Notes: generated by a model from the letters alone, not told the origin. A DNA stretch of 64,000 bases from Clostridia bacterium (GCA_016278615.1 JADQBM010000037.1:12939-76938), one strand, 5' to 3'; shown: positions 3,758 to 21,280, numbered from the stretch's first letter. Made by a program: numbers and translations.

Positions 3758-5488
3758 TTATTTGATTTTAATATATATTCTTGATTCTAAATAACCCAAC
3801 GTCATTGTATCTGTGCCTTTTATGTTTTCCCCATTCAAATTGTAGAACATAAAGGTGATGGATACTTTCTCATTGCCATCCATTATCATAATATCTTCTA
3901 TTTTTTCAGGTTGTTTCCCTTGTCTCATAAGATGATATTGTCCCGCCAAATCTTCCATATTGACCTCATAGACCTTCTCATCCTTTAGTAAAATTTCGAA
4001 TTCTTTAGATACCTCTGAATAGAGCACATGCATATCACCACTTCGAGAATCAATGCCTCTTTCCAAATCAGCAACATAATCATATTCAGAAATATCAAAC
4101 AGTGAAGCTCTTTCACTGAAGTAGTAATTAATATACTCCATATCCCTTATATAATTCACGTATTCAAAACCGAAAACATCTTTCATCTGTTCTAAATCAA
4201 AATCCTGAGGCAATACCCTTATATCTTTAAGCTCATGATTATATTCAAAATAGCGTAATATCTCACTAATCGCTTTTTCTTCCTCTTCTGAAAGCTTTTG
4301 ACTGGGCTTAATAATCTCATCACCATTTAACATACCATATTCTTCTAAAAGTGATTCGAATCTATTATTTTGACTCCATATAGAAACAGAAATCCCACTC
4401 AAAGGGCCGTAAGCTGAAATAAGCAATATAACTGTAGCTGAAATCACAACGATAATAGATTTATAATGCTTCGAAAAAATACCATAAACCATATTCCCCA
4501 AAATCCATAATCCAGAAATGATAACACCATACCTAGGGATTGTAATGCCATACTCATTTACCCGAATGGCAATGGCAAAAAACATAATACCTAAAGGAAT
4601 TAGTATGACCATAGGGAAATACTTTGAGAAATGCTTAGCCCATTTATTTTCATCTCCGAGTGAACGCACAAAGAATAATGAAATGGTGCTAATGATACCA
4701 TACCAAAGAACAAGGTTACCAACCAACCCTCTGGGCCACTCCCACGTCAGAATCATTTTTGCAAAATAGGCATATAAAATTACTGTATATATTGAAATAA
4801 GCGGTAAGATAATATATAAAAAAAGCGTACGAAGTACCTTTGGATAATTTATAATTTTCATGTCTTCATCATAAGTTGGAATGTTGCCTAAAAAATATGG
4901 AACTGCAAATAAACCCGCAACCAAAATAAAAATATCCATATATATTTTACTGCTTATTGTTAGATCAAAGAGTTGTTCAACTGTAAATATCGTTGCGATA
5001 ATCCCTAAGAATAATACCAACGAATATAGACAGGTAATAAAAAACCTTGTGATCAGATTCATCACATACAGAGAATAGTTCTTTCTCTTAAGAAAATATG
5101 GCACCAAGGTAAAAACTAAGTACAAACTTGCGCTCAGAGTGAGATATCTGAACATGAAGACTTGGTCAGGTTCTTTTGGAATAAAAAGATAATAGACCAA
5201 AAGAAAGCCTAAAACAGCGATATCCACTACATACCTTCTGGAGATTTTGTTCTTGAATCGCTCAAAGTACAGCTTAATGGTAGCAAATAATGGTAATCCT
5301 AATGCAAGGCTCAAAAGAACTTTATATAAAATGTCTTCCAATTCACTGTTAATAGACTCCATATGGTTCAACAAAATTGCAATGATAACAATGGATACAG
5401 AAACCATTAGAGTCTCCGGAAACCGCTTTGCACTATCCCTTAGCTTTAATAATATGACTCCAATAATGGTTTCTAATTTTTTAATCAA
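3758..5488 (-). CDS. DUF4153-like polytopic membrane protein
   Basis: Many TM segments; RFP, YPKVL..LFLYI..P, RVNEYGIT..RY and GPLS..S..SQ..R patterns. Confidence 0.75.
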   Translation of the reverse strand: MIKKLETIIGVILLKLRDSAKRFPETLMVSVSIVIIAILLNHMESINSELEDILYKVLLSLALGLPLFATIKLYFERFKNKISRRYVVDIAVLGFLLVYYLFIPKEPDQVFMFRYLTLSASLYLVFTLVPYFLKRKNYSLYVMNLITRFFITCLYSLVLFLGIIATIFTVEQLFDLTISSKIYMDIFILVAGLFAVPYFLGNIPTYDEDMKIINYPKVLRTLFLYIILPLISIYTVILYAYFAKMILTWEWPRGLVGNLVLWYGIISTISLFFVRSLGDENKWAKHFSKYFPMVILIPLGIMFFAIAIRVNEYGITIPRYGVIISGLWILGNMVYGIFSKHYKSIIVVISATVILLISAYGPLSGISVSIWSQNNRFESLLEEYGMLNGDEIIKPSQKLSEEEEKAISEILRYFEYNHELKDIRVLPQDFDLEQMKDVFGFEYVNYIRDMEYINYYFSERASLFDISEYDYVADLERGIDSRSGDMHVLYSEVSKEFEILLKDEKVYEVNMEDLAGQYHLMRQGKQPEKIEDIMIMDGNEKVSITFMFYNLNGENIKGTDTMTLGYLESRIYIKIK

Positions 5489-5574
5489 TCTAATCCCTCA
5501 CTTCTTTCTGCAAATCTTACTACTATTTAATATTACCAAAATTATGGAATACTTACTATAAATATTCTAAAGAA

Positions 5575-6036
5575 TTATTCTGAGTCATTTTGTATTATGG
5601 GTTCACCTTCTGTGATTTCTATAGGCTGTACGCTATGGATTCTAAGGACAACATAAGGATAAGTGATAACTTGTAAAGTCATGCTCTCCTTATTTGGCTT
5701 TGTTTCATTATATAAAATAGATATGCTGCCTTCTACATCTTTAACATGATCAATATGAATGCCATAACCTCCTGTATTCCTTTCACCAAGACCGATAAAA
5801 ACGTACTGAGAATTTTCGAATAAAATAACCTGAGCATTTCCCTCTGTCATCTCTTTCTCTATAATGCTCGCCATCTCTTCCGGAATGTCTTCATCTTCGA
5901 CAATAGAATACGTTATATCATTCCCTATAACACCATCATCCTTCCCTTCCGCTTCAGCACAGCCTGTACCGAACACCCCTAAACTCATTAAAAGGATAAA
6001 TAGTAACATTCTATTTTTCATAATCATAACCCCCAT
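5575..6036 (-). CDS. PrcB C-terminal domain lipoprotein
   Basis: Lipobox-like GTGC; LGERNTGGYGI and QVITYPYVV motifs. Confidence 0.8.
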   Translation of the reverse strand: MGVMIMKNRMLLFILLMSLGVFGTGCAEAEGKDDGVIGNDITYSIVEDEDIPEEMASIIEKEMTEGNAQVILFENSQYVFIGLGERNTGGYGIHIDHVKDVEGSISILYNETKPNKESMTLQVITYPYVVLRIHSVQPIEITEGEPIIQNDSE

Positions 6037-6175
6037 TTTACATTTTTCTCCTTTGACGCCCCAAATACATTTTTGTTCCCTTCTTGCTTTTGTTCATCCC
6101 CTTTATCTTGCTCCCTTGTTTGAATAAAAAAATAACCTAAACAATATTCTGTTTAAGCTATTTTATATATACTTC

Positions 6176-6904
6176 TTAACGGCATTCCACTACGATGCCT
6201 TCTAAAAGTGGCTCTCCACGAATATCTCTTCTAACGTTCATGGGTGCAATGTTGACTGTATTCTCTGGCATATCAAATGGATTTATCTCAACGACTCTTG
6301 TTCCAGCCCAAGTCGGTTCTTGCTCATAAGGTGCTGTCCGACTGAGTATAGCAGAATACCTTTCTTCACCCATCAGTAGCGTTCCCACATAAGCATCAAA
6401 ATCTCCAATATTTTGAGGCGTTGGCAGCCCTAAAGCAGCAAAGGTTATCGCATAATTCCCATCGCCTGCTGGATGAATATATACAACCCCTCCTGTTATT
6501 TCAGGAAATGCCGTTGGGGTATCTGAAGTTCGATTGAGTACAATGGCACATCCTTTGTATCGCTCATCCGCTGCAGGAATACAGATGCGCTGCCCAACGA
6601 ATAATATATTTGGATTCGTAATTTGTGGGTTGACAAACAATATCTGAGCAAGAGGCACTCTAAATTTTTGAGCAATGATATTTAAATTCTCACCACTTTT
6701 AATGGTATAAAACTCACCACTGCATCTAATGGGCACACAAATTTGCTGCCCGATATATAAAATGTTTGGATTCGAAATCTGTGGATTTGCCAATATTAAG
6801 TCTTGTATTGAAACATTATATTGAGCTGCTATACCATAAAAAGTATCCCCAGCTTTAATAAAATAAGTAACACCTTGACATTCCCTCTGTAAATAATGAA
6901 CCAT
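6176..6904 (-). CDS. Two-LysM protein, SafA/ExsA-like spore assembly protein
   Basis: Two LysM repeats with ANPQISNPNILYIGQQICVP-type ends. Confidence 0.8.
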   Translation of the reverse strand: MVHYLQRECQGVTYFIKAGDTFYGIAAQYNVSIQDLILANPQISNPNILYIGQQICVPIRCSGEFYTIKSGENLNIIAQKFRVPLAQILFVNPQITNPNILFVGQRICIPAADERYKGCAIVLNRTSDTPTAFPEITGGVVYIHPAGDGNYAITFAALGLPTPQNIGDFDAYVGTLLMGEERYSAILSRTAPYEQEPTWAGTRVVEINPFDMPENTVNIAPMNVRRDIRGEPLLEGIVVECR

Positions 6905-6972
6905 CTTTCCATCTCCTTAAAAAAAATTCCTGCTAATAGCATGATATTCAAATTAGTAAGATAGTGATACAG

Positions 6973-7028
6973 GAGATTAGAGATTAGAGATTAGGTGGCA
7001 GGGGACAGGGGACTGAAAGCTGAAATAT
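6973..7028. repeat. Degenerate 7-bp tandem array
   Basis: GAGATTA x3, GGTGGCA, GGGGACA, GGGGACT, GAAAGCT, GAAATAT in one 7-nt register. Confidence 0.6.
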
Positions 7029-7176
7029 TAAGGATAAGTGTAAGTTAAATACTATGTGTTAAATAATAAGTATTGAGTGAGTGAAAATCTAATGAAAACC
7101 TGTTTTAAAGAACTTATTATTTATTTTTTAATATTCAACTTACACTACTCTGAAAGAGTTTATTTACACTTAATAC

Positions 7177-8301
7177 TTAGAGCGTAATTTTATTTAAGTC
7201 TGTAAGATACTCTACAACCTCTTGGGGTTTTCCTCTAAAAACAATTTTCTCTACGTTTTTTTGTATCTGGTATTCATACATAGGGTCATAATACTCTTTT
7301 AAGAGCATGTCTATCCATTTTTCGTGAGAAACAGAATTTCCGAAAATCATTTGTTGGTTATAGGCAAATTCAAATAAATTCACGAGGCGTTTGTAACGTT
7401 CTCCACCCAGACGCTTTTTCAGCTTACTCATACTACTGCTTATATACGCATACCACTCTGATAGGCCCTGTTCTTCTCCAAATGTTGTAACATATTCCTT
7501 CTGAGATTGAATCACATATTCATTCATGGTGTTTTGTACACGCTGATCAAAAGGCAATTCCAATAATACCAATTCTCCAAGATTAAAATACTGATATAAT
7601 GGTTCTGGAATACGGCACTTGCCTATATTGGTCCCTTCATCTTCTAATATCATATACTTATACGCTTCTTGTTCATGCTGAATCAAGGCATAAGCCAAAT
7701 CATTTTCAAAGCTGATTTGAGTCGGTTGGGGTGTAAGTTGCCCACCGAAAGAAGATCCTCGGTGATTGGAAATACCTTCCAAATCAATAGAATTATTAAG
7801 ACTTTTTAATAATTGAGTTTTGCCAGAACCAGTGTATCCCCCTAATAAAACAGGGATACTCTTTTGCATGTCAGGGTTTAGAGCGTTAAGAAGAAAATTT
7901 CTAAAAGCTTTATACCCCCCCTCCAGTCTCATCACTTTCTTCCCAGTTGCCTCAAAAATCCATCTTTGACTTATTTGTGACCGTAGGCCGCCTCTAAAAC
8001 AATAAAGCATACCCTCTGGGTTTTGGGTAATAAAAGAAACCCAAGCTTCAATTCTTTCTTGCCTCTTTTCCCCTGTTACCAATTCATGTCCCAACTTAAC
8101 AGCTTCGTCACTTCCTTTTTTTGCATAGCAAGTACCTACCAAATGTCTCTCTTCATCATTCATAAGAGGTAAATTGACAGCATTAATAAAAGCACCCTGC
8201 TTGAATTCCAAGGGTGCACGCACATCTATAAGGGGGATTTCCCCGGTAACAATTCCTTTAAAATCTCTATTAGTATGGGTTATCATATTAAACACTTCCA
8301 T
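7177..8301 (-). CDS. selU: tRNA 2-selenouridine synthase
   Basis: Rhodanese domain IDVRAP.EF and YCFRGGLRS; P-loop GYTGSGKT; HRGSSFG; YYDPMY; TAATG overlap with selD. Confidence 0.95.
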   Translation of the reverse strand: MEVFNMITHTNRDFKGIVTGEIPLIDVRAPLEFKQGAFINAVNLPLMNDEERHLVGTCYAKKGSDEAVKLGHELVTGEKRQERIEAWVSFITQNPEGMLYCFRGGLRSQISQRWIFEATGKKVMRLEGGYKAFRNFLLNALNPDMQKSIPVLLGGYTGSGKTQLLKSLNNSIDLEGISNHRGSSFGGQLTPQPTQISFENDLAYALIQHEQEAYKYMILEDEGTNIGKCRIPEPLYQYFNLGELVLLELPFDQRVQNTMNEYVIQSQKEYVTTFGEEQGLSEWYAYISSSMSKLKKRLGGERYKRLVNLFEFAYNQQMIFGNSVSHEKWIDMLLKEYYDPMYEYQIQKNVEKIVFRGKPQEVVEYLTDLNKITL

Positions 8302-9332
8302 TATTTTACTGTAATGAGCTTCTCATTTCTTTCACAGGTTTGTCCGATGCTACTAAGGGATAAACCTGCTGCAGTAGTTACATTTATAAATTCCGGAACA
8401 CTTTCCTTTCGAACAATCACCAAAAGCCCACCGGAAGTTTGGGCATCACATAAAATCCATTTCTGCTCTTCCGTCATTTCATTGATGGCATGCCCATAGC
8501 TTTTAAAGTTATTCCTTGTCCCTCCTGAAATACAATCCATTTCAAAATATTTTTTTGTATTCGGTAGCAATGGCACTTGGTCATACCAAATAGTAGCAGA
8601 AATTCCGCTGCCTTCACAAATTTCACCCAAATGCCCCAGCAATCCAAACCCTGTCACGTCTGTTAGCGCCACAACGCCATTTATAGTCGAAATCTCCGTG
8701 CCAATTTTATTAAGGGTGCACATGGCTTCAATCGCTACATCTATGTGAGTGGGTTCAATTTTCTTTCTTTTTTGTGCCGTGGTTAAAATACCGATACCAA
8801 GTGGTTTGGTTAAAAATATTTCGCATTCAGGTTCTGCTTTATTGTTTTGCTTTAACTGTTTGTTTTGTACAATGCCAGTTACTGCCAGTCCAAAGATGGG
8901 TTCCGGCGCATCAATGGAATGCCCACCGGCAAGAGGAATCCCTGCATCACCACATGCCGCGCGGCCACCTTCCAAAACTTGTCTCGCCACATCTGTTGAA
9001 AGTAGCTCTAAAGGCCATCCTAAAATTGCAATGGCCATAAGAGGTTTGCCACCCATAGCATAAATATCGCTGATGGCATTGGTAGCAGCAATCTTACCAA
9101 AAGTGAAGGGGTCATCCACGATGGGCATAAAAAAATCCGTCGTACTGAGAATCGAGGTCCCATTTCCCAAATCATAAGCAGCCGCATCATCTTTACTACT
9201 GTTGCCCACCAGTAGGTTTGGATATTTAATAATATCCTTATTTGTTTTTATTATGGTTTCTAATATCTCTGGAGATATTTTACACCCACATCCCGCACCG
9301 TGACTGTATTCAGTTAATTTTATGTTCTTCAT
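8301..9332 (-). CDS. selD: Selenide, water dikinase (Cys-type)
   Basis: [47 protein letters not shown]. Confidence 0.97.
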
Positions 9333-9550: not shown

Positions 9551-10204
9551 CTACTTTGTCATTTCTTTCAACTTTGAGCTCACCATTATAGTTGCTTCTG
9601 TCGCCTCCATGACCTGGTCAATTGAATAGTCTGAATTTATTTCAGTGAGCACCAGTCCAGATGGTGTAACTTCTATAACACCCATTTCTGTAACAATCAT
9701 ATCTACAACCCTTAATGCTGTATATGGAAGGGTACACTTTTTTAGAATTTTGTGCTTACCCTTATTGGTGTGTTGCATGGCAATGATAACCTTTTTAGCT
9801 CCTACCACAAGATCCATAGCGCCACCCATTCCCGGAAGCATAACACCAGGAATGATCCAATTGGCGAGATTTCCTTCTTCATCTACTTGGAGCGCTCCTA
9901 AAACCGTTATATCAACATGGTGCCCCCTAATAATTCCAAAAGAAGTTGCACTATCAAAAAATGAAGCGCCAGATTTAATGGTTACATATTGGGCGCCTGC
10001 ATTGATTAAATCCACATCTTCTTGGCCCTTTTCAGGAGCAGGACCCAGCCCTAAAAATCCATTCTCGGACTGAAACGTGATATCATAATCATCAGGAATA
10101 TAGTTGGCAACTTTTGTAGGGAGACCAATGCCAAGGTTCACAACATCTCCATCCTTTAACTCTTTTGCCACTCTTTTAGCGATCATTTCCTTTACATCTG
10201 CCAT
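9551..10204 (-). CDS. atoA: Butyrate/acetate:acetoacetate CoA-transferase beta subunit
   Basis: VNLGIGLPT, catalytic [13 protein letters not shown]. Confidence 0.93.
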
Positions 10205-10860
10205 GGTTTCTCGCCTCCTACAATTACATCTACAAATATTCCAGGTGTCATGACATTATTAGGGTCTATTTCTCCAACTTCTACAATCTTTTCTGTCGCA
10301 ACTATAACTGTATCTGCCGCCATTGCCATTAATGGGTTAAAGTTCCTTGTGGATTCGTTGTACCAGACATTCCCTTTTTTATCTGTAACCGATCCCCTAA
10401 TCAATGCAAAATCTGCTTTCAATGGCATTTCTAATAGATACTCTTTTCCTTCTATTGTTATGACTTGTTTGCCCTCGGCTACAATGGTCCCAACTCCTGT
10501 AGGGGTTAAAACGCCACCTAACCCAGTCCCTCCTGCTCTTATCCTTTCAGCAAGTGTTCCTTGTGGCACTAAAATAACTTCCAATTCTCCACGATCCATT
10601 TGTTGTCCTACCTCAGGATTTAAGCCGACATGGGAAGCAATTAAAGTTTTGACCTGTTTATTGGCAATGAGTTTTGCAACGCCTCTTTTAGGATAAGCCC
10701 CATCGTTACAGATGATAACCAAATCCTTTATTCCCTTTAAAACCAGAGCATCCATTAAAATTTCAGGCGTACCTGTTCCCATGAAGCCTCCCACCATAAT
10801 GACAGATCCATCTTTGATAGGAGCTATGGCTTCTTCAAGGGTCTTTATCTTTTTCTGCAT
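10192..10860 (-). CDS. atoD: Butyrate/acetate:acetoacetate CoA-transferase alpha subunit
   Basis: [30 protein letters not shown]. Confidence 0.93.
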
Positions 10861-10955
10861 ACTTTGCTCCCCCCTTTATATTTATAATACTTTAATAATT
10901 GGAAAAACCGTTCAAATAAATTTAATTTCTTTTTTGACATATTATTATACGACAT

Positions 10956-11795
10956 TTATTCGCATTCTCTTTTTCTTAGACTTAGAATTCTTCTTGCTTC
11001 TTCAGGTGTTGCAATATCTCTTTTTAGAATATTAGCTAATTTGACAACTTTCTCCACTAAGGCCCCATTACTTCTGGCTAGTACGCCTTTTTCTAAATAG
11101 AGATTATCCTCAAACCCTACTCTTACATGCCCACCCATCACAATAGCATTTGCAGCCAAATCAAATGCGCCTCTACCTATTCCAGTTGCACACCATGTAG
11201 CATCTTTTGGTAAAGATTCAACCATATAAACAAGATCCCTTGTTGTAGCAGTCATTGCACCGTTTACTCCAAGTACGATATTAAAATGCAAAGGCCCATC
11301 AATAAGACCCTTTTTATATAGTCTGAGTGCATTATCAATCATTCCTTTTTCAAAGCATTCCAGTTCTGGTTTAACCCCCAGTGTTTTCATTTTTTGTGCA
11401 AATGTATGATTCATGGTTTCTGTATTAACAAATATTAAATCGCCTCCGAAATTACATGTGCCACAGTCGAGTGTTGCAATTTCTGGTTTCAGATCAACCG
11501 GTTGTAGCCTCTCCTCTGCCGTCATACCAACAGCACCACCCGTGCTTGGTAAGATGATGACATCTGGACATGCTTTCCTAATAGCATCAATAGCTTCTTT
11601 AAATCTGCCCTTATCTTGGGTAGGGGTACCATCATCCCATCTGACATGCAGGTGTATAACAGCCGCTCCTGCATCATAAGCAGACTTTGCTTCTTTTATG
11701 ATTTCTTCAATTGTATATGGCACCGCTGGGTTCATTTCCTTTGTGACTTCTGCACCACAAATAGCAGTAGTTATAATTAACTTTTCCATCTTCAT
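10956..11795 (-). CDS. kce: 3-keto-5-aminohexanoate cleavage enzyme, copy 1
   Basis: LIITTAICGAE, IHLHVR, STGGAVG, RVGFEDN (BKACE family); adjacent to kal. Confidence 0.92.
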   Translation of the reverse strand: MKMEKLIITTAICGAEVTKEMNPAVPYTIEEIIKEAKSAYDAGAAVIHLHVRWDDGTPTQDKGRFKEAIDAIRKACPDVIILPSTGGAVGMTAEERLQPVDLKPEIATLDCGTCNFGGDLIFVNTETMNHTFAQKMKTLGVKPELECFEKGMIDNALRLYKKGLIDGPLHFNIVLGVNGAMTATTRDLVYMVESLPKDATWCATGIGRGAFDLAANAIVMGGHVRVGFEDNLYLEKGVLARSNGALVEKVVKLANILKRDIATPEEARRILSLRKRECE

Positions 11796-11834
11796 GCCCT
11801 TTCTTTCTCTTAGTCTAAAACGATTAGAAATTTA

Positions 11835-12227
11835 TTATTTTTTCCTTTGCTTATGTTCAGGAGTAACGCATGTTCCTTCTGCAATACATACAACGATTGG
11901 TTCCTCTAGAACATCACAAGCAGATTCACTTATATCTGTTCTTGGAACAATTATCTTTCTTGCTTCAAACTTAATTTTTCTAGATGTTCTTCCTGTTTCA
12001 ATAATTTCTCCGTAAGCTTCTATATAATCTCCCGCAAATACTGGCGCCTTAAATTCAATCATATTATAAGCTTTAAAAAGTCCTTCATCGCCATCCATTC
12101 TTATTAATAACTCTGTGGCTACGTCACCAAATAGCTGAAGCATCCTTGCCCCATCCACAAGACCTCCTCCATAATGTGCATCATGTGCTGACATTCTTAA
12201 TTTAATTAATGAAACTGCTTTTTTCAT
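11835..12227 (-). CDS. kal: 3-aminobutyryl-CoA ammonia-lyase
   Basis: [32 protein letters not shown] hotdog-fold motifs; start at ATG 12227 after GGGAGGA. Confidence 0.93.
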
Positions 12228-12340
12228 CTTTTCAATCCTCCCAATATAGCAATAGCACTTGTAATATATTTTGAAATCACATTTAGGATAATTAGATTCC
12301 TTCACCTTCTGTGCATAATATGTATCACATAATAATCATC

Positions 12341-13645
12341 TTAATCTATGAACATCAATGATAATGCTGGTATATAGGTAATTATCATTAATGCAAATAT
12401 TGACACTATGAAGAATGGTATAATGTATCTCATCATGCTTTCCATTTTTACTTTACCAACAGCCGAACCAACGAATAGATTGCATCCGTAAGGAGGTGTA
12501 CATAGTCCTATTGCAAGGTTAACAGTAATAATAATACCGAAGTGTACGGGATCAACACCATAACCAACAACTGCTGGAAGGAGTATTGGCGACATGACAA
12601 TAATAGCAGGAACCGTATCTAGGAAACAGCCAATTACAAGAAGTACCAAATTAATAAGTAAAAGCATCACATATTTATTGTCTGTACAGTTCATTAGCAT
12701 CTCATAGACCATCCTTGGTATTCCCGCGTGAGACAAATAAGTGGAAAATACTGTAGAATATCCTAAGAGAAATGATGTAATTCCATTTAATACAGCTGCA
12801 GCCAGAAACGTTTGATATAAACCTTTCAGTTTCATATCCTTATAGACAAATAAGCTTACGAAGATAGAATAAACTACAGAAATACATGCGGCTTCAGTAG
12901 GTGTGAATATACCGGAATAAATCCCTCCGAGTATAATAAATGGTGATAAAAGCGCCCAGAATCCATCCTTGAAGGATATTACAACCTCCTTTAGTCTGTT
13001 TAACACAAACTCCTTTAAAGGAACTTCCTTTGATACTTCCTGCTTATCCCCTATATTTAGTTTCTTACACATGAAGTAATTCATAAATAACAGAATGGTT
13101 CCAATAGTAATTCCGGGAACAATTCCTGCTAGGAATAAATCAGATATAGAAGTATTGGTCGTGGCCCCATATAGAACAAATCCTAAACTTGGAGGTATAA
13201 TTATGCCTATGATACCTGCAAAGCAAACCAGGGTAGTACAATAAGCAGCATTATAGCCCTTCTTCTTCATTTCAGGTATCATCATACTTCCAATTGCCGA
13301 TGTAGTAGCCATTCCTGAACCAGACAAAGCCCCGAAAAACATACATGCAAGTACGGATACAGCGCCAAGTCCACCCGTAACAAATCCGATTAACTTGTCA
13401 CAGAAATTAACTATCCTGGCTGCGATACCACCAGTAGACATGATAACGCCTGCCAACATAAAAAACGGTATTGCAAGTACTGTAAAGGAGTCAATTCCTG
13501 CGTAACAATATTGTGCAGTAATTACCATATCTATATTAGTAAAATAGTACAAAATAAGCATCGTAGCGCCACCGATGGCAAAACCTACTGGAACCCCTAA
13601 TAGTATAAATGAAAACAGGACAAAGAATAAAACTAATACTTGCAT
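12341..13645 (-). CDS. dctM: TRAP transporter large permease
   Basis: LAIPFFMLAG, IIIPPS, FTPTEAA, TPPYG motifs. Confidence 0.93.
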   Translation of the reverse strand: MQVLVLFFVLFSFILLGVPVGFAIGGATMLILYYFTNIDMVITAQYCYAGIDSFTVLAIPFFMLAGVIMSTGGIAARIVNFCDKLIGFVTGGLGAVSVLACMFFGALSGSGMATTSAIGSMMIPEMKKKGYNAAYCTTLVCFAGIIGIIIPPSLGFVLYGATTNTSISDLFLAGIVPGITIGTILLFMNYFMCKKLNIGDKQEVSKEVPLKEFVLNRLKEVVISFKDGFWALLSPFIILGGIYSGIFTPTEAACISVVYSIFVSLFVYKDMKLKGLYQTFLAAAVLNGITSFLLGYSTVFSTYLSHAGIPRMVYEMLMNCTDNKYVMLLLINLVLLVIGCFLDTVPAIIVMSPILLPAVVGYGVDPVHFGIIITVNLAIGLCTPPYGCNLFVGSAVGKVKMESMMRYIIPFFIVSIFALMIITYIPALSLMFID

Positions 13646-14148
13646 TACATATCCCTCCCTTCTTCAGGCTCACCTGCTTTAAAGTTTTTAATTGATTCCC
13701 AGATATAGCCTAACGATCTTAATGCCATGAGCGAGCATCCGATAGGGATTGCAATATAGCCCCAAGCAAGGCTTATTTGAAGACAAATAAATTTAGAACC
13801 TGCCCAGAATATACTCATATAGATACCGTAATAAATCGTAACAGCACAGATTCCAATAACAATAATTGAGGAAATAATATTTATAACTTGTGCCTTTTTA
13901 TAAGAAAATTTGTCTACGAGCATGGTTATCTTTATATGCTCTCCCCTCTTGGCACCAAGACTAATACCTATCCAAGTAAGCCATTCAAAGAGGAAACGTC
14001 CAAGCTCTTCTGACCAATATAAAGAATTATTAAAAACATACCTCATGATAACCTGAAGAAAAATATCTGCTACCAAAACTGCGAATATCGTTACCAAGAA
14101 TATTTCCTCAAAGTGATTATAAAAGTTTAGCAAGCGATTTTCTTTCAT
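13645..14148 (-). CDS. dctQ: TRAP transporter small permease
   Basis: QVIMRYVFN..LYWSEEL.R and HI motifs; 4 TM. Confidence 0.9.
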   Translation of the reverse strand: MKENRLLNFYNHFEEIFLVTIFAVLVADIFLQVIMRYVFNNSLYWSEELGRFLFEWLTWIGISLGAKRGEHIKITMLVDKFSYKKAQVINIISSIIVIGICAVTIYYGIYMSIFWAGSKFICLQISLAWGYIAIPIGCSLMALRSLGYIWESIKNFKAGEPEEGRDM

Positions 14149-14230
14149 CACTATCTCCAATTCTGATTTTATATCTAAAACATACGAATAATTGCCTTAA
14201 TAATACCATTATTTAGAAATATAAGAATAC

Positions 14231-14261
14231 ATCTGGGTCGAACTAAAGGTCCAACCCAGAT
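14231..14261 (-). promoter_or_regulatory. Intercistronic hairpin after dctP (stabilizer or partial terminator)
   Basis: ATCTGGGT...ACCCAGAT inverted repeat, no long U tract. Confidence 0.5.
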
Positions 14262-14316
14262 AGAATATTACAGATTGTTTTATTAATACATGACAAATGT
14301 TATTCAATACTTACAC

Positions 14317-15357
14317 TTATTTTCCTGCAGTCGCTAAGAAAGCATCAAATATTTCTGCACCTGTTCTTTCTCTTTGCATTTCATATACGCTTTCACATTC
14401 CATGTACAAAGCATCTTTTTCTTCTTTTGTTAATTCATAGACAGTTGCGCCAGCATCTAAGAAATTCTGAACATATACCTCTTCCAATGCTCTTTCATCT
14501 GCTCTTTGCATTTCACAAGTTTGCTTAATACCTTCTAAGAAAATGGGTTTGATATCTTCAGGCAGTGAGTCCATGAATTTTGTTGATGTCATAACAGTAT
14601 AAGGTGAACTTTGATGCTCTGTTAGTGTTACATATTGGGCATTTTCATAAAATTTGAAATCATTGAAGACACCTAATGAATGATCAAGTCCATCAATTGT
14701 GCCTTGTACAAGTGAAGTATAAACCTCGCCCCATGCCATAGGCGTTGGATTAGCACCAAGAGCCTTCCATATAGCAAGATTCATATCTGTTGGAGTAATA
14801 CGAAGCTTGTATCCTTTTAAGTCATCTGTATTATGATATACTTTTTCTGTGCTGATCAAAGACTTCATCCCATTGTACATGAAATCAAGGCAGTAATATC
14901 CGGAGTCTTCTAAAAGCTCGTTATAAAGATCAAGGCCACCTTTTTCAAAGCTACCAGTTACCCAATCATCATATGAATCATAGAGAAACGGTAGATCTAC
15001 AACGTCCAGCCTGTTACCAATGATAGATCCAGGCACGCCTGAAAGCCCAAAATAAATTTCAACTGTTCCAAGTAAAAGTCCCTTACACGCTTCTGGATCA
15101 TCCCCAAGTTGACCATCAGGGTAAACTTCAACTACAACTCTTCCGTCTGTCTGTTCTGCCATGTACTCTTTGAACCATTGGCAAGCAACATTTGTTGATC
15201 TACTACTTGTGTCTGTATTGCTGATTTTAATAACAATTGGCTCTTGGTTCTCAGAATCTGTGTTAGCGTCTTCGCCTCTTCCACTTGCACACCCCACTAC
15301 TGTTACTAAAAGTAGGGCAACAACCAGGATAATGGCCATTACTTTCTTGATTTTCAT
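14317..15357 (-). CDS. dctP: TRAP substrate-binding lipoprotein
   Basis: Lipobox VVGC; VYPDGQLG, DLKGYKLR, LGANPTPMAWGEVYTSLVQGTIDG. Confidence 0.92.
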   Translation of the reverse strand: MKIKKVMAIILVVALLLVTVVGCASGRGEDANTDSENQEPIVIKISNTDTSSRSTNVACQWFKEYMAEQTDGRVVVEVYPDGQLGDDPEACKGLLLGTVEIYFGLSGVPGSIIGNRLDVVDLPFLYDSYDDWVTGSFEKGGLDLYNELLEDSGYYCLDFMYNGMKSLISTEKVYHNTDDLKGYKLRITPTDMNLAIWKALGANPTPMAWGEVYTSLVQGTIDGLDHSLGVFNDFKFYENAQYVTLTEHQSSPYTVMTSTKFMDSLPEDIKPIFLEGIKQTCEMQRADERALEEVYVQNFLDAGATVYELTKEEKDALYMECESVYEMQRERTGAEIFDAFLATAGK

Positions 15358-15452
15358 ACTTTCTCCTCCTTTAAACTTTTAAATGTCAATAGCCTTTAAT
15401 ATCAGGCTTTTATATAAACATTCAGGGAGTGACCTTCACACCTTGATGTCTA

Positions 15453-16493
15453 CTACGGTTTACAATATCGGTTTATAAAATATTCTCTCAGCTTTTGATT
15501 ATTTCTAATAATATCAAAAGTAATCTCTGCATGACCCGGATAGTAGCCATTTCCAATAATCATCGAAACGTATTTTTTTATTCCCTCAGCTCCTAATGAA
15601 GCTTTCACAAAATCTGTGCTCATACTAAAAAAATAAATCTTTCCAATATCCTTAGTTACCAGGATAGTTGAGAGTTCAGTATCGGGAACATTAACGGTAC
15701 TTACAGTAAAATCTGCCAGACGTCCGTCCATTGCCTCCATATATCTGTTATAAGTATCTATAGGTTCCTGCCCATTCACCTGCAACACGACATCTGCAAT
15801 TTCCAGCTCCCTTACAATGTCACACTGCACTTTAGAATGTTCTAGACAAACAACTTTTCCATTTGGTGCTACTCGTTTCTTTGCTTCTGCCAGACAAAGT
15901 AGCCCAGCCTTACCAGCACCTATTATGACAACCACATCCCCAGGCTTTGCATTCATAGCCACCTGCGCAGGAGCGCCAGCTACATCCATAATGGCCAAAC
16001 TTAAGTTTTGACCTAAATCTTCAGGAATTTTTGTATAGATTCCGCTTTCAAACAAAATAGCATTTGCTTTGCAAAACACCTGCTCAGTATCCACATCAAT
16101 ATGATGAATTTCAGAAATTCTCAATGGCGTAAGGGATAATGAAACCAATGTTGCAATCTTATCTCCTGGCTGGATATCTATCTTGCCTTTTAAATCTTCA
16201 CCAATTTCTTTTACGATGCCAATAAGCATACCTCCCGACTTTGTTACCGGGTCCTGGAATTTGCCTCTTTCTTCAACAATTTCTAATATGGCTTGTTTGA
16301 TTTTGTCTATGTTTCTACCGCATTCATTCTTAATCCGCCCAAACGCAGTAGAGGTAGGTTGAAGTGCAATAACATCAATTAGTATTTCATTTGAAAAAAT
16401 TTTAGGATCATTGTTAATCTTTTCTGCAGCCTGTGGTAGTAAACCTTTAGGTGTAATGACACGATGGCTGCCGTACTGATTACCTTTCATCAC
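15453..16493 (-). CDS. kdd: L-erythro-3,5-diaminohexanoate dehydrogenase-like enzyme (divergent)
   Basis: YGSHRVI.P.G.LPQ, SGGMLIG, ATLVSLSLTPL, DVAGAPAQV, YFFSM, LGAEG, IGNGY. Confidence 0.88.
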   Translation of the reverse strand: MMKGNQYGSHRVITPKGLLPQAAEKINNDPKIFSNEILIDVIALQPTSTAFGRIKNECGRNIDKIKQAILEIVEERGKFQDPVTKSGGMLIGIVKEIGEDLKGKIDIQPGDKIATLVSLSLTPLRISEIHHIDVDTEQVFCKANAILFESGIYTKIPEDLGQNLSLAIMDVAGAPAQVAMNAKPGDVVVIIGAGKAGLLCLAEAKKRVAPNGKVVCLEHSKVQCDIVRELEIADVVLQVNGQEPIDTYNRYMEAMDGRLADFTVSTVNVPDTELSTILVTKDIGKIYFFSMSTDFVKASLGAEGIKKYVSMIIGNGYYPGHAEITFDIIRNNQKLREYFINRYCKP

Positions 16494-16531
16494 TGTCCTC
16501 CTTTATAGGAATTTCTACTATAAACAAATGG

Positions 16532-16548
16532 AGCAAGTAATGTGCCAA
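16532..16548 (-). promoter_or_regulatory. Sigma54 (-24/-12) promoter of the kdd-TRAP-kal-kce operon
   Basis: Minus strand TTGGCACATTACTTGCT matches TGGCAC-N5-TTGC, about 40 nt upstream of kdd. Confidence 0.92.
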
Positions 16549-16786
16549 GCAGCTGTTTTATTTTGTTCTACAACACTCTTATTATATTTAATCTCATTTC
16601 TTTTCTTAGTTTTGATTGCATATTGTACACTTCCCTTTCTCTTCTTTGTTATATTGCAACAAAAAACGAAAATTCTTTTTATTATAAGAATTTTCGTTAC
16701 ATATTTTAATACTTTAGCTCTGCGGTCCAAGATTTCTATTTTTTCGAATTGTATCATGTCTATATTAAATAATTATTACTATTTTT

Positions 16787-16822
16787 TGTATCGATTTTGA
16801 CTCATGACGCAATAACGACTCA
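16787..16822. promoter_or_regulatory. Two tandem candidate enhancer (UAS) boxes
   Basis: TGTATC-N6-GACTCA (16787-16804) and TGACGC-N6-GACTCA (16805-16822), imperfect versions of TGAGTC-N6-GACTCA. Confidence 0.65.
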
Positions 16823-16957
16823 TGCCCGATTATTTAAGCAATAATCTAACTTCTTAGAACTACTGGTTTCAATCCTTTATAGATCAAATACCATTATCTG
16901 ATCCCTCATAAAACACATTCTCTGTTTTTTGCATTTCTACTTTTATTACCAATAACC

Positions 16958-16975
16958 TGAAGCATTATCGACTCA
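16958..16975. promoter_or_regulatory. Third candidate enhancer box
   Basis: TGAAGC-ATTATC-GACTCA, same spacing as the other two. Confidence 0.6.
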
Positions 16976-16976
16976 A

Positions 16977-19049
16977 TTATAAACCAAACTTATTCAACCT
17001 TCTGGCTATGCTAGATTGCGTCATCCCCAAGGCACTTGCCATTTTTCTTGTTGTTTTATACTTTCTTTTGTATTGTATTAGAACCTCTTTTTCTATTCTC
17101 TGCATTGCATCTGTTAAACTTTCACCTTCAACAATACTTATTTCTTTTTGCTGCAATCCTAATTCTTTTTGATTGGAATGAAAACAACTTCTCAATGCCC
17201 TTACATCTTCAATCTTAACAATATTGTTATCGGTTGAAATCAGCAATCCCTGAATAAAATTTTGTAATTCTCTGATGTTTCCCATCCATTCATACTCTTT
17301 TAGATGTTCTACGGCCATAGGTTCTATGGTTTTAGATATATTAAATTTATGATTATATTCATCAATAAAAACTTTAATCAACAAACCTATATCTTCATAC
17401 CTTTCACTCAAAGCAGGTATAAAGATTGGAAAAACATTCAGCCGGTAATACAAATCTTCTCTAAAATCACCACATTTGACCATTTTTGCTAAATCTTTAT
17501 TTGTTGCTGCAATGATTCGAACATCGGTTTTAATGGGTGTTATCCCCCCAATTCTATATATTTCATTTTCCTGCAATACCCGTAATAGTTTTGATTGCAA
17601 TAATATTGGCAACTCACTTATTTCATCAAGAAACAGAATGCCCTTTTGTGCAATTTCCCAAATTCCTTTTTTCCCTTTAGGATCCGCTCCTGTAAAGGCA
17701 CCTTTTTCATAGCCAAATAACTCTGACTCCAATAAATGATCTGGTATCGATGCACAATTGATTTTAACAAATGGAGAATTATTTCTTTTACTATTATTGT
17801 ATATTATTTGTGCAATAATTTCTTTTCCAGTACCTGATTCTCCGTATATCATAACTGTACATTCATATTTTGCCACCTTAAGAGCATTTTGTAGCACTTT
17901 TCTCATGGCCGCACTTTCAAAAACAAGATTTATCCCATTATGCTTTTTTGTATAATCTAAAAAGTGTTCAATTGATTTTTTATCGCTATTTTTATAGTTA
18001 TTTAAAAATACGCCCCGATTATCAAGGCCTTCTTGTAATAACTCCCGCAATTTATCATATTTTCGTAATAATTGTAGAGTTAATTCAGCATGTCCTTCTA
18101 CATACCCTTTATAAGGAATAATGGTGATATCTTTACCTATTGATTCTGCTGAAAGACCAGCTACATTGCTGTCGCTCCTTAAGCTTGCGAAAAAGACTGT
18201 CCCCTTATTTTTTACTAAAAATAGGGGTGTTATTTCTGCATATGCTTCTTCGGAACAATTAATTACAATATCAAATAAATTATTTTCTTCGAAATACCTA
18301 TTATAAAAATCTAACGTGTTCCTGATATCGTAGCACAATATTTCATCAAATACATCGCTTTCCTCTGCCTTTTCTCTTCCTTCTTCAGAATTAATTACAC
18401 CTACGATTTTACCCTTTTTTCCCATCTTTTCTCTGGCTGCAAAACCACACAGTAATCCCAACTTGGTCCATGCACCTAAAATAATCACTTTATCTTCAGG
18501 TTCTACTATCCGAGTGGTTTCTGCTGGGGCTCCAGCTTCATCCCAAGCACTTATTAGCACTTTCAAAGGTAAATCATCTGGTTTTTGTGAAATAAGCGAG
18601 GACTCAAACATAATAGCTTGTCCTTTAATAGAAATTTGGGCGAACCCAATATCTATTCCTATAATTCTTTCAATCTTCAACGGGGTGGTTGAAAGGGAAA
18701 CCAAGGATATAATTTCATCTCCAATTTGCAACCCATGCTTATTGGTGTATGCTTTCCCCATTTCTTTTACTCTACCATAAAGCATCCCCCCGGTTCCTGT
18801 TATGGGATTATGTAATTTTCCTCTGCTATTTACAATCTCAAGGATCCTATCTGCTATTTTTTTCTTTTCTCCATTGGTCTCCTCAAGTATCTGTGCAAAA
18901 CTTACAAAATTAATGTTTAGTATTTCAACGTCAACTAATAATTCATTTTCATTAATTTCCATGGTATTATCTAACTTCCATGCTGTTTGCAGAAAAGAAT
19001 TTTTGGGTTCCAATACTCTATTAAATCCATACTTGTCAAATCTCTTCAA
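16977..19049 (-). CDS. Sigma54-dependent activator with N-terminal Kdd-like domain
   Basis: About aa 1-340 parallel Kdd (GKLHNPITGTGGML, LVSLSTTPL, DEAGAP, LSAE.IGKD); then GESGTGKE, GAFTGA, LFLDEI, FREDLYYRL and a C-terminal HTH. Confidence 0.92.
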   Translation of the reverse strand: MKRFDKYGFNRVLEPKNSFLQTAWKLDNTMEINENELLVDVEILNINFVSFAQILEETNGEKKKIADRILEIVNSRGKLHNPITGTGGMLYGRVKEMGKAYTNKHGLQIGDEIISLVSLSTTPLKIERIIGIDIGFAQISIKGQAIMFESSLISQKPDDLPLKVLISAWDEAGAPAETTRIVEPEDKVIILGAWTKLGLLCGFAAREKMGKKGKIVGVINSEEGREKAEESDVFDEILCYDIRNTLDFYNRYFEENNLFDIVINCSEEAYAEITPLFLVKNKGTVFFASLRSDSNVAGLSAESIGKDITIIPYKGYVEGHAELTLQLLRKYDKLRELLQEGLDNRGVFLNNYKNSDKKSIEHFLDYTKKHNGINLVFESAAMRKVLQNALKVAKYECTVMIYGESGTGKEIIAQIIYNNSKRNNSPFVKINCASIPDHLLESELFGYEKGAFTGADPKGKKGIWEIAQKGILFLDEISELPILLQSKLLRVLQENEIYRIGGITPIKTDVRIIAATNKDLAKMVKCGDFREDLYYRLNVFPIFIPALSERYEDIGLLIKVFIDEYNHKFNISKTIEPMAVEHLKEYEWMGNIRELQNFIQGLLISTDNNIVKIEDVRALRSCFHSNQKELGLQQKEISIVEGESLTDAMQRIEKEVLIQYKRKYKTTRKMASALGMTQSSIARRLNKFGL

Positions 19050-19061
19050 AGTAAAGTCCTC

Positions 19062-20435
19062 CTAATCCAGCAATCCTGGCGCCACTTCCCCAATAACCGG
19101 TTTCATTTCAATCAAAGATTCCTCTATGGCTATGACTGCAAAATCAATATCATTTTCAGTCATAGCAGTGGACATACAATACATGCCACGTTGGGCACAC
19201 AATACCCCTTTATCAAGTAAGCTTAAGAATAACAAGGAATTCAGGCCTTCGAATGATGTAGCAACGCCTCTATATTCTTCAATCTTTTTATTACTGAAAA
19301 TAATATTATAAATGGACCCAATGCCATAAAGTTGAATATTTAACCCGATTCTTTCAAACATCTTCGTAACATCATTTTTAAATTTTGTTCCCAATTTATT
19401 AACGTAATCAATTTTCTCTTGATTGTAGTCCTTCATGGCGGCTGCTCCAGCGGACATAGAAATCGCATTTCCATTAAAAGTGCCTGAATGATACATGATT
19501 TTATTGTTAGGATTAAAAATATCCATTATTTCCCTTTTGCCACCAAATCCTCCAATAGGGAGTCCTCCCCCTATTATTTTCCCAAATGAAGTTAAATCCG
19601 GTTCAATATTAAATTGTTTTTGTCCCCCACCATAGGAGAGCCTCGCGGTGACCACCTCATCAAAAATAAGGATAATTTTATAATGCTTTGTAATTTCCCT
19701 AACAAATTCTAAATATTCATTGGTTGCAACAATTTGACCGGCAGAGCTCATAATAGGTTCAATAATAAAAGCTGCAATTTGTTCATGATTTTTCTCTATA
19801 ACTTTTTTTGTTGCTTCAATATTATTAAAGGATACCACCAAAACATCCTTTAAAGAATTCTTTGAAACCCCTTTGCTATCTGCAATGGCCTTTATATTAT
19901 GGATGCTTCCTGATTTTTTTAGGTCTGGATCTACATTCGCATCAAAAACATCCGTGGTTCCATGATACCCACCTTCAACTTTTACTATTTTTTGTCTATT
20001 TGTATAAGCGCGTGCACCTCTGAGGGCGTGCATATTGGCTTCCGTTCCAGAATTAGCGAAGCGCACTAAGTCTACCGATTTAAACCTATTCACTAATATC
20101 TCAGCAAGTTCTATTTGCTGCTTTACCGGTGCCGTATAGGCACTTCCAACTTGAATCTGCTCACATACTGCTTTTGCAGTTGGTTTGTGTCCATGTCCGT
20201 GAATGAGAGAAGTATAGTTGTTATCAAAGTCTACGAGCTTATTATTGTCTGCATCAAATAAATAAGCACCTTCTCCTTTTACTATAAAGTGAGGGTAAGG
20301 TTTAAAAAAAGTAAATGTTCGGGTATCTCCACCTGGCATAACATGGCAGGCTCTCTCATGTAATTTTTTTGACTCCTTTCTCTTGCTTTCATATTTATCA
20401 GTAATCATTTTTATGTACTTGTCTTTTTCCTTCAT
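19062..20435 (-). CDS. Class III PLP aminotransferase, HemL-like; candidate 3-aminobutyryl-CoA aminotransferase (Kat-like)
   Basis: RFANSGTEA, GGYHG, IFDEV, FGKIIGGGLPIG (PLP lysine), HSGTFNGN; context next to kce. Confidence 0.8.
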   Translation of the reverse strand: MKEKDKYIKMITDKYESKRKESKKLHERACHVMPGGDTRTFTFFKPYPHFIVKGEGAYLFDADNNKLVDFDNNYTSLIHGHGHKPTAKAVCEQIQVGSAYTAPVKQQIELAEILVNRFKSVDLVRFANSGTEANMHALRGARAYTNRQKIVKVEGGYHGTTDVFDANVDPDLKKSGSIHNIKAIADSKGVSKNSLKDVLVVSFNNIEATKKVIEKNHEQIAAFIIEPIMSSAGQIVATNEYLEFVREITKHYKIILIFDEVVTARLSYGGGQKQFNIEPDLTSFGKIIGGGLPIGGFGGKREIMDIFNPNNKIMYHSGTFNGNAISMSAGAAAMKDYNQEKIDYVNKLGTKFKNDVTKMFERIGLNIQLYGIGSIYNIIFSNKKIEEYRGVATSFEGLNSLLFLSLLDKGVLCAQRGMYCMSTAMTENDIDFAVIAIEESLIEMKPVIGEVAPGLLD

Positions 20436-20449
20436 CCATATGCCCCCAT

Positions 20450-21280
20450 CTATTTTTGTTTTTCCAACCTTAGGATTCTTCTTGCCTCTTCAGGTGTTGC
20501 AATATCCCTCTTCAAAATACCAGCTAACTTCACAACCTTTTCTACTAAAACCCCATTGCTTTTCGCCAATACACCTTTTTCTAAATAAAGATTATCCTCA
20601 AAGCCTACTCTTACATGTCCACCCATGACCATAGCAACAGCAGCAATATCAAATTCACTTTTTCCTATTCCAGTTGCGCACCATGTAGCCTCTTTCGGTA
20701 GAGACCCAACCATATAAACAAGGTCTCTTATGGTCGCAGCCATGGCACCATTTACCCCAAGAACAATGTTAAAGTGTAAAGGGTCCTCTAAAAGACCTTT
20801 TTTATATGATTTAAGTGCATTATCAATCATACCTTTTTCAAAACATTCAAGTTCTGGTTTAACACCTAAATCTTTCATTTTCTTTGCAAATGTATGAATC
20901 ATGTCCTCTGTATTGACAAATATTGAATCCCCAAAATTACATGTTCCGCAATCAAGGGAAGCTATTTCAGGTTTCAACTCAATGGGCTGTAGCCTTTCTT
21001 CAGCTGTCATTCCAATGGCCCCTCCTGTACTAGGTAAAATAATAACATCTGGACATGCTTCCTTAATGGCATCAAAAGCTTCTTTAAACCTACCTTTATC
21101 TTGAGTAGGCGTACCATCGTCCCATCTCACATGTAGGTGTATGACAGCGGCTCCTGCATCATAGGCAGATTTTGCTTCTTTAGCTATTTCTTCAATGGTA
21201 TAAGGCACCGAAGGATTCATTTCCTTTGTGACCTCTGCACCTGAAATCGCCGCCGTAATAATTAATTTTTCCATTCCCAT
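20450..21280 (-). CDS. kce: 3-keto-5-aminohexanoate cleavage enzyme, copy 2
   Basis: Colinear and highly similar to 10956..11795. Confidence 0.92.
   Translation of the reverse strand: MGMEKLIITAAISGAEVTKEMNPSVPYTIEEIAKEAKSAYDAGAAVIHLHVRWDDGTPTQDKGRFKEAFDAIKEACPDVIILPSTGGAIGMTAEERLQPIELKPEIASLDCGTCNFGDSIFVNTEDMIHTFAKKMKDLGVKPELECFEKGMIDNALKSYKKGLLEDPLHFNIVLGVNGAMAATIRDLVYMVGSLPKEATWCATGIGKSEFDIAAVAMVMGGHVRVGFEDNLYLEKGVLAKSNGVLVEKVVKLAGILKRDIATPEEARRILRLEKQK

Follow-up and report, generated by a model that had tools for sequence, protein, structure and literature searches.

Among the chief ways in which bacteria form butyrate is lysine fermentation, with Fusobacterium nucleatum and Clostridium sticklandii as examples of its canonical form, and in genomes it is usually scored as all or nothing. 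What, then, might be the role of a locus that carries the lower half of this pathway together with a tripartite ATP-independent periplasmic (TRAP) importer, and without the aminomutases? Such a locus lies at positions 9551-21280 of a 64-kb stretch of DNA (64,000 nucleotides in full, hereafter the window) from a Clostridia bacterium (GCA_016278615.1 JADQBM010000037.1:12939-76938). The canonical pathway, as outlined in excerpts of PMC3149608, runs through KamA, KamDE, Kdd, Kce, Kal and AtoDA. We give an even chance to the reading that the locus encodes the sigma-54-controlled uptake and oxidation, linked to nicotinamide adenine dinucleotide (NAD), of 3,5-diaminohexanoate or a closely similar beta-amino acid from outside the cell, which would then be fed into Kce, Kal and AtoDA.

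All 11 genes of the locus lie on the minus strand, as do all features of the window located by coordinates below, and their frames are intact and of full family length. In the direction of transcription they are kceA, a class-III aminotransferase gene, a sigma-54 activator gene, kdd, dctP, dctQ, dctM, kal, kceB, atoD and atoA. Kdd, both Kce proteins and Kal exceed the curated NCBIfam equivalog cut-offs, with scores of 230.1 bits against NF052381 (cut-off 200) for the product of kdd (15453-16493), 426.8 and 427.5 bits against NF052387 (cut-off 382) for those of kceA (20450-21280; also 357 bits against PF05853) and kceB (10956-11795), and 187.5 bits against NF052388 (cut-off 160) for that of kal (11835-12305), a 3-aminobutyryl-coenzyme A (CoA) ammonia lyase whose sole solved relative is the beta-alanyl-CoA ammonia lyase 4mtu. 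KceB matches the solved Kce 2y7d at 269 bits, with the HLH and FED motifs aligned, and is 85.6% identical to KceA, which points to a recent duplication.

The TRAP and CoA-transferase subunits exceed subfamily models. A complete DctP-type TRAP set was found in consecutive genes, comprising the solute-binding lipoprotein DctP (14317-15357; PF03480, 215 bits; TIGR00787, 186 bits, cut-off 175), the small permease DctQ (13645-14160; PF04290, 109.8 bits) and the large permease DctM (12341-13645; PF06808, 382 bits; TIGR00786, 425.8 bits, cut-off 268). CoA-transferase subunits A and B are encoded by atoD (10192-10860; TIGR02429, 249.6 bits, cut-off 128.5) and atoA (9551-10204; TIGR02428, 313.7 bits, cut-off 243.55), and AtoD scores 290 bits against the equivalog NF007394, under its cut-off of 315. 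The initial annotation, which had named kdd, two kce genes, kal, atoDA and an aminotransferase, with dctPQM between kdd and kal, is therefore borne out for every gene that it lists and for the ends of the locus, and kamA, kamD and kamE, which it reported as absent from the locus, are found nowhere on this contig; it had overlooked the gene at 16977-19049, which encodes the 690-residue activator, as well as the close similarity of the two kce copies, a sigma-54 promoter 5' of kdd and the status of Kdd as a paralogue.

The same annotation had proposed neighbourhood conservation as a check on the link between the TRAP genes and kdd, and this link goes beyond chance. DctP orthologues (54-86% identity) were collected from species-representative genomes, a class sample and metagenome contigs, giving 17 distinct loci including the window; L031 and L032, which hold overlapping dctP halves from the same metagenome-assembled genome (MAG), were counted as one locus, and L011, whose DctP match of 29% identity over 181 residues is no orthologue, was dropped. 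A Kdd with 70-85% identity to that of the window is encoded directly beside dctP or dctM in 13 of the 17 loci. In the remaining four, the contig breaks off within the TRAP genes or shortly past them, and no locus is contrary; the DctP proteins thus form a subfamily seen only next to kdd2-type genes. Among 398 other genomes scored in the class sample (401 drawn, two unscored), a single one carries the DctP, and it does so in a kdd-kal-kce-dctPQM arrangement. The string also includes kce in five loci (the window, L006, L009, L027 and L033), joined by kal in all but L009, and Kal, Kce and the TRAP-linked Kdd are encoded in tight strings in L027, L033 and the window. The presence of kce and kal fits a 3,5-diamino acid, because only such a compound would yield, on cleavage by Kce, the beta-aminoacyl-CoA that Kal needs. 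As a side observation, dctP and kdd stand without adjoining dctQM in L030 (5671-7757) and L037 (9983-12109), with an AzlC-family gene and a class-III aminotransferase gene nearby.

We name the TRAP-linked Kdd Kdd2, since it represents a paralogue of L-erythro-3,5-diaminohexanoate dehydrogenase in its own right. Residues 3-344 of Kdd2 align to the solved enzyme 7DL3 (E 1.7e-85, 290 bits, compared with 390 bits for canonical Kdd), and the Kdd2 of the window is around 52% identical to canonical Kdd. In a maximum-likelihood tree of 25 full-length sequences, which left out the partial Kdd2 at contig ends (L008 and L027) and an intact copy from L032, all 10 TRAP-linked Kdds fell into one clade (support 100/100) on a stem of 0.84 changes per site, with four canonical Kdds basal to this clade and the sensor domains of the activators outside both. 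Scores against NF052381 likewise formed three classes, of 275-286 bits for canonical Kdd, 219-232 bits for the TRAP-linked enzymes and 150-198 bits for the sensors. Twenty alignment columns are fixed differently between canonical Kdd and Kdd2, and the fixed changes that alter charge in Kdd2 include D47T, N81D, G85K, G306K and an Asp replaced by Tyr, Phe or His at position 308. All 10 Kdd2 sequences have a GxGxxG motif and an invariant Glu ending the second strand, whereas canonical Kdd has GxxGxxG and no acid at the end of that strand. In Rossmann folds, GxGxxG with Glu as against GxxGxxG points to NAD as against NADP preference, and the sequences thus suggest that Kdd2 is of the NAD type and canonical Kdd of the NADP type. 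Both enzymes occur together in six of the seven module-bearing genomes, indicating that the two types are not redundant; and since Kdd2 is a distinct paralogue, it may act on a substrate other than the canonical (3S,5S) isomer.

The activator encoded between the aminotransferase gene and kdd2 consists of a Kdd-like domain (residues 1-340), an AAA+ domain (376-542; PF00158, 233 bits) and a C-terminal helix-turn-helix (HTH) domain (643-690; HTH_50). An end-to-end alignment pairs its residues 6-340 with 7-348 of the 3,5-diaminohexanoate dehydrogenase 7DL3 (E 3.7e-62), so that the sensor is a whole Kdd homologue, and residues 8-183 score 197.2 bits against NF052381, just under the cut-off of 200. 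As expected of a sigma-54 enhancer-binding protein, it combines the HTH domain with an AAA+ domain in which both GAFTGA and the Walker A motif (GESGTGKE) occur; a -24/-12 promoter lies nearby, and the genome encodes rpoN (463 bits, cut-off 277). The Rossmann motif of the sensor is degenerate (GAWTKLG, compared with GxGKxG-type motifs in the enzymes), and nucleotide binding by the sensor may therefore be impaired. A fused activator of this kind adjoins the module in eight loci (the window, L006, L010, L028, L033, L034, L035 and L038) and also in G087, while L030 and L037 have an activator without the Kdd domain around 2 kb upstream. L008 and L009 carry a split pair, in which a separate Kdd-like open reading frame (ORF) is followed by a shorter activator (4135-6544 and 4969-7384, respectively). 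In these pairs the Kdd-like ORF, of 351-355 residues, keeps GxG(R)xG and is sister to the enzymes in the tree, and the activator, of 435-437 residues, has an N-terminus of around 125 residues that falls in no assigned domain; the ORF could represent a third paralogue of the enzyme or else serve as a trans-acting sensor.

A HMMER search with the sensor domain against 1.84 billion representatives, clustered at 50% identity, returned 162 clusters at E <= 1e-30, and 20 of the best 150 are 679-717 residues long, a length that marks them as fusions of the same kind. Named members occur in two of the clusters, and those examined, which include proteins of Intestinimonas massiliensis and of a Peptoniphilus, bear no more than generic labels (sigma-54-interacting or TyrR-like regulators). 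Members of the activator family precede three kinds of operon, namely canonical kamA operons, TRAP-kdd2 operons and operons in which an aminotransferase gene is followed by an NhaC-type transporter gene. PrpR, XylR/DmpR and PrdR are enhancer-binding proteins with small-molecule sensors. A further example is NorR-GAF (PMC2941729). The present activator resembles these known proteins in its N-terminal sensor, its AAA+ domain with GAFTGA, its C-terminal HTH domain and the neighbouring -24/-12 promoter, but differs in having as its sensor an entire homologue, 340 residues long, of the dehydrogenase of the same pathway, in which the nucleotide-binding motif is degenerate. We found no description of this architecture in the literature searched, which included parts of PMC6615313, PMC3162934, PMC12316311 and PMC6069880.

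Using a promoter scan, we identified a sigma-54 (-24/-12) promoter, TGGCACATTACTTGCT, at 16532-16547, 39 nt upstream of the kdd2 start; it is the sole exact match to TGGCAY-N5-TTGCW within the window, and seven related loci also have an exact promoter 5' of kdd2 or dctP. Three TGAGTC(A/G) sites (16798-16975) lie between the activator stop codon and this promoter, so that three of the 11 such sites in the window fall in the 483-nt spacer between the activator gene and kdd2. The equivalent spacers of L006, L010, L028, L035, L038 and L034 contain clusters of the same sequence, often palindromic, and the sites are candidates for binding by the activator. No sigma-54 consensus site was found 5' of kceA in the scan, and the likely transcription units are accordingly kceA-aminotransferase-activator and kdd2-dctPQM-kal-kceB-atoDA, with boundaries that are provisional. 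Two potential hairpins were also seen: a 13-bp inverted repeat with a T run, which is terminator-like, downstream of the activator gene (16665-16698), and a 14-bp stem-loop 3' of dctP (14230-14262). We also noted a one-mismatch sigma-54 site, TGGCGCCAGGATTGCT, within the final codons of the aminotransferase gene, immediately 5' of the activator start codon (19069-19084); it could reflect autoregulation or chance, sites with at most one mismatch numbering 11 in the whole window against 5.3 expected. Control of kdd by sigma-54 was not found in the literature searched, and PMC12316311 does no more than list lysine 2,3-aminomutase among sigma-54-linked genes in Bacilli.

Whether the locus can be fed from lysine depends on the rest of the genome, which comprises 3.5 Mb in 128 contigs and is 98.97% complete. 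Here the initial annotation, which had taken the module for a stand-alone pathway and had proposed a genome-wide search for kamA and kamDE, stood in part. A kamA gene is present on another contig, C19, of 13 kb (626 bits, cut-off 525), whereas kamDE was not found: PF09043, the family model for KamD, had no match, tblastn with the KamD of a relative returned nothing, and tblastn for KamE gave only one weak B12-domain match at 27% identity. The PF09043 search can be considered valid because the same model matched strongly in four of five related genomes, and a relative whose genome is 100% complete and has both clusters gave no KamD either. Neither a canonical Kdd nor a second free-standing Kdd was detected in the genome. 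Lacking both KamDE and canonical Kdd, this organism could not make 3,5-diaminohexanoate from lysine by known enzymes; of the lysine 2,3-aminomutase and KamDE that a complete pathway needs, it encodes KamA only.

The other carriers of the module differ in this respect. Across the seven module genomes, canonical Kdd is present in all but that of the window and KamD in five, being absent from the window's genome and from an Anaerovorax odorimutans MAG, and KamA was found in all six module genomes tested. In KamD-bearing relatives the canonical operon consists of a Kdd-domain activator, kdd, kamA, two further genes, kamD, kamE and atoDA (L020; L025 with L023). This distribution does not sustain the idea of a stand-alone pathway and indicates instead that the module is generally an accessory input branch beside full lysine fermentation; it is the sole entry to the lower pathway only in the genome of the window and, in part, in its relative. 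On C19 (L004, 2258-11891), two tandem Kdd-domain activators and an exact sigma-54 promoter precede kamA, genes for CoA-transferase subunits A and B, a thiolase and a class-III aminotransferase (PRK06917-like), without kamDE, and this arrangement is repeated in a 100%-complete relative. As a matter of speculation, it may represent a B12-independent beta-lysine route in which transamination, CoA transfer and thiolysis give 4-aminobutyryl-CoA. A second KamA-like gene, on contig C36, was considered as a hidden lysine mutase and rejected, as its score exceeds that required for glutamate 2,3-aminomutase (652.3 bits, cut-off 650) and as it lies between dnaN and recF and next to dnaA (L005, 7050-8303), an unusual place for a gene of this kind.

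In order to characterize the importer, we read the DctP binding pocket from a HMMER alignment to 4P47 and an alignment of orthologues, with numbering as in PMC11668362, which gives Arg152, Arg173 and Asn213 (4P47 numbering) as the carboxylate-binding triad. DctP has a lipobox-like VVGC and a lipoprotein-type signal. The salt-bridge Arg173 is kept as R186, invariant in six of six orthologues, whereas Arg152 is replaced by Lys or Met and Asn213 by an invariant His; the aromatic lid Y196 is kept as W209, and the acidic D76 as D87, with a second acid, D86, beside it. Such a pocket fits an atypical carboxylate ligand rather than a typical hydroxy or keto acid. TRAP systems for zwitterionic or unusual solutes, as named in PMC11668362, include TeaABC for ectoine, DctP7 for pyroglutamate and IseP for isethionate. 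The system encoded here is like them in combining a DctP-type binding protein with DctQ and DctM and in its salt-bridge arginine, but two carboxylate-supporting residues are replaced and the acid D86 is extra. Our literature searches found no TRAP system for a ligand like 3,5-diaminohexanoate, in agreement with the initial annotation, nor any link between TRAP transporters and lysine fermentation.

The aminotransferase (19062-20435; PF00202) resembles glutamate-1-semialdehyde aminomutase (GSAM) and scores under both hemL cut-offs. Among solved structures, 6k8h, ForI and the beta-transaminases 2yku, 6iz9 and 4ao9 match it best and rank above true GSAMs, and it is probably a transaminase of beta-amino groups, acting on a free acid or a CoA ester. 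The possibility that a GSAM-like protein stands in for KamDE was ruled out on chemistry; the amine shifts catalysed by GSAM take place beside a carbonyl and not among carbons that lack activation. A search for aminotransferase loci with the single protein returned only two distant loci, and among 60 relatives no orthologue was found at E 1e-100. Desulfobacteraceae homologues (41-44% identity) adjoin a beta-keto acid cleavage enzyme (BKACE) gene in 41 of the 80 loci examined, and 28 of these 41 also have TRAP-gene matches. Clusters of this kind in Desulfobacula and other Desulfobacteraceae (L086-L130; for example, L099, 7308-16580) contain an aromatic aminomutase/lyase-family gene, the aminotransferase gene, an AsnC regulator, the BKACE gene, a CoA ligase gene and dctPQM, and look like a route for an aromatic beta-amino acid that would end in aroyl-CoA and acetoacetate.

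Bacteroidetes homologues at 36% identity lie in atoD-atoA-aminotransferase-thiolase strings. This context is the one reported for Kat, a HemL-like 3-aminobutyryl-CoA aminotransferase of a variant lysine pathway (Perret et al., 2011; excerpt of PMC3149608). Kat and the aminotransferase of the window are both HemL/GSAM-like, the gene of the window lies beside kce, and homologues of its product share the reported Kat context, but their identity is only 36%, and kal is also present in the window. The closest orthologues (52-63% identity, 28 loci) occur in another context, with a Kdd-domain activator and an NhaC-type transporter and without a thiolase; the enzyme of the window may or may not be a Kat. 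An NhaC-type transporter gene and a bacterial PH-domain gene follow the aminotransferase gene in three annotated loci of this group, and a sigma-54 activator precedes it in 12 of the 28, of the Kdd-domain type in L062 and L067 and of the response-regulator type in L077.

These elements can be assembled into a putative pathway, in which we infer the ligand, the direction of transport, the ligand of the sensor and the role of the aminotransferase. DctPQM would import the external acid, as the initial annotation had proposed, with the binding protein tethered to the membrane as a lipoprotein; binding of the ligand to the Kdd-like sensor would then allow the AAA+ domain to open the sigma-54 promoter 5' of kdd2. 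Kdd2 would oxidize the 3-amino group to give a 3-keto acid, and the aminotransferase might carry out the same step by transamination or act on 3-aminobutyryl-CoA, in parallel to Kal. KceA or KceB would cleave the keto acid with acetyl-CoA to yield 3-aminobutyryl-CoA plus acetoacetate, Kal would make crotonyl-CoA and AtoDA would activate the acetoacetate. That Kdd2 passes the curated Kdd model counts in favour of a 3,5-diamino acid as the ligand, and several metabolomics papers are reported to have detected 3,5-diaminohexanoate.

Several observations weigh against this assignment. Full-flank loci without kce or kal nearby (L007, L030, L034, L037 and L038) represent minimal modules of the TRAP genes and Kdd2; the 28 closest aminotransferase orthologues have no kce, kdd or kal within flanks of up to 9 kb; the best solved match of DctP reaches 133 bits, with no close characterized TRAP relative; and at the 20 columns that discriminate canonical Kdd from Kdd2, the sensor has the canonical state in seven, the Kdd2 state in one and neither in 12, so that the pockets of sensor and Kdd2 are not matched. 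Were the substrate the (3S,5S) isomer, the six genomes with canonical Kdd would not obviously need Kdd2. Positions 306 and 308 of Kdd2 lie three and five residues past the Glu aligned with E310 of the solved enzyme, mutation of which widens substrate scope (excerpt of PMC9902596), and the fixed differences of Kdd2 could mean a different substrate. The main rival reading, which we hold to be rather unlikely, is that Kdd2 and the TRAP system handle another beta-amino acid outside the lysine pathway, with Kce, Kal and AtoDA processing its product or being mere neighbours. Candidates would be 3-aminobutyrate, which would give acetoacetate in one step, beta-lysine, N-epsilon-acetyl-beta-lysine, beta-glutamate or another stereoisomer; N-epsilon-acetyl-beta-lysine and beta-glutamate are osmolytes of methanogens. 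Besides the minimal modules and the coexistence of the two Kdd types, such a reading draws on the long stem of Kdd2 and its fixed charge changes in conserved loops, on the loss from DctP of two of the three usual carboxylate-binding residues, on the glutamate 2,3-aminomutase encoded in the genome and on the Desulfobacteraceae clusters with their aromatic aminomutase/lyase-family gene, which indicate that the logic of import, beta-amine deamination and BKACE cleavage serves other beta-amino acids. However, Kal, Kce and Kdd2 are encoded in tight strings, and the beta-aminoacyl-CoA used by Kal is not yielded by beta-lysine, beta-glutamate or acetyl-beta-lysine; Kdd2 passes the curated Kdd model, and the changes in its cofactor site (GxGxxG and the Glu after beta-2) could alone explain a separate paralogue.

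A more conventional explanation, in which L-lysine or beta-lysine enters through the TRAP system and the locus is simply the lysine-fermentation operon of this organism, with the 5,6-aminomutase step carried out by an unrecognized enzyme or by genes lost in assembly gaps, appears improbable. It is in keeping with the presence of kamA under its own sigma-54 promoter beside two more Kdd-domain activators, and with an assembly of 128 contigs in which that of kamA spans only 13 kb, but neither the family model nor tblastn recovered KamD or KamE at this level of completeness, and the complete relative sharing both clusters also gave no KamD. Moreover, canonical operons (L020) have kamDE after kamA where CoA-transferase genes follow it here, and genomes with the full canonical operon still carry the TRAP genes and Kdd2 with a separate activator paralogue. 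Least probable of all is a decaying remnant without current role, left when a formerly complete lysine pathway lost kamDE and canonical kdd. One kce-atoDA set and the canonical kdd that are present in the syntenic A. odorimutans locus (L006) are indeed absent from the window, and kamDE is missing from the genome; but all 11 genes are intact and of full family length, the promoter matches the consensus exactly, kce has been duplicated rather than lost and the module is kept across distant Bacillota.

The surroundings of the locus are unrelated to it, with feoB upstream on the opposite strand; directly downstream of atoA (7177-9332) lie a selD-like gene with AIRS domains and a gene with a rhodanese domain, which may encode a selenouridine synthase, and this pair is likewise found downstream in L006. 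No riboswitch was detected, none of 4227 Rfam families matching the window at the gathering score. Further away, an ORF of 1495 residues (50486-54973) combines RCC1-like repeats, GLUG motifs, a He_PIG Ig-like domain and S-layer homology domains, and falls where the window has its sole G+C-rich segment (0.50 compared with around 0.37).

Set beside canonical lysine fermentation, the chemistry proposed for this locus is the same from 3,5-diaminohexanoate downwards, with homologues of Kdd, Kce, Kal and AtoDA that pass curated models. It differs in that the genome lacks KamDE and has kamA elsewhere, that Kdd is a paralogue with an NAD-type motif, that a TRAP importer lies inside the operon, that sigma-54 control involves a Kdd-derived sensor and that the module coexists with the full operon in relatives. 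Another parallel is the catabolism of beta-lysine in Pseudomonas B4, in which, according to work said to come from the Barker laboratory, an N6-acetyl-beta-lysine transaminase is followed by a 3-keto-6-acetamidohexanoate cleavage enzyme. The sequence from beta-amino acid through beta-keto acid to acyl-CoA and acetoacetate matches the pair of kceA and the aminotransferase gene, but organism and substrate differ, and no acetyltransferase or deacetylase was seen in the locus. The component families are all known; what is new is the way in which they are combined, together with a Kdd paralogue of its own, a subfamily of binding proteins and a sensor derived from an enzyme.

Taken together, we tentatively propose, at somewhat less than an even chance, that an activator family senses through a catalytically degenerate copy of Kdd and that its members switch on different beta-amino-acid modules. 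The module of the window would be a scavenging system not described before, made up of a new TRAP binding-protein subfamily and a neofunctionalized NAD-type Kdd, that lets anaerobes feed on 3,5-diaminohexanoate or another beta-amino acid released by neighbouring lysine fermenters, and it would be the sole route into the lower pathway in this genome and in its closest relative, both of which lack the B12-dependent mutase.

The activator would clearly illustrate how the fold of an enzyme can be taken over to serve a sigma-54 activator as its sensor, an architecture shared by at least 20 clusters at 50% identity. If the proposal is true, Kdd2 would be a natural NAD-type beta-amino acid dehydrogenase, in a class of enzymes of interest for preparing beta-amino acids in chiral form (excerpt of PMC9902596), and the importer would add a new ligand class for TRAP transporters. 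Genomes without aminomutases could still run the lower, energy-yielding half of lysine fermentation, and intermediates of the pathway would be exchanged between cells.

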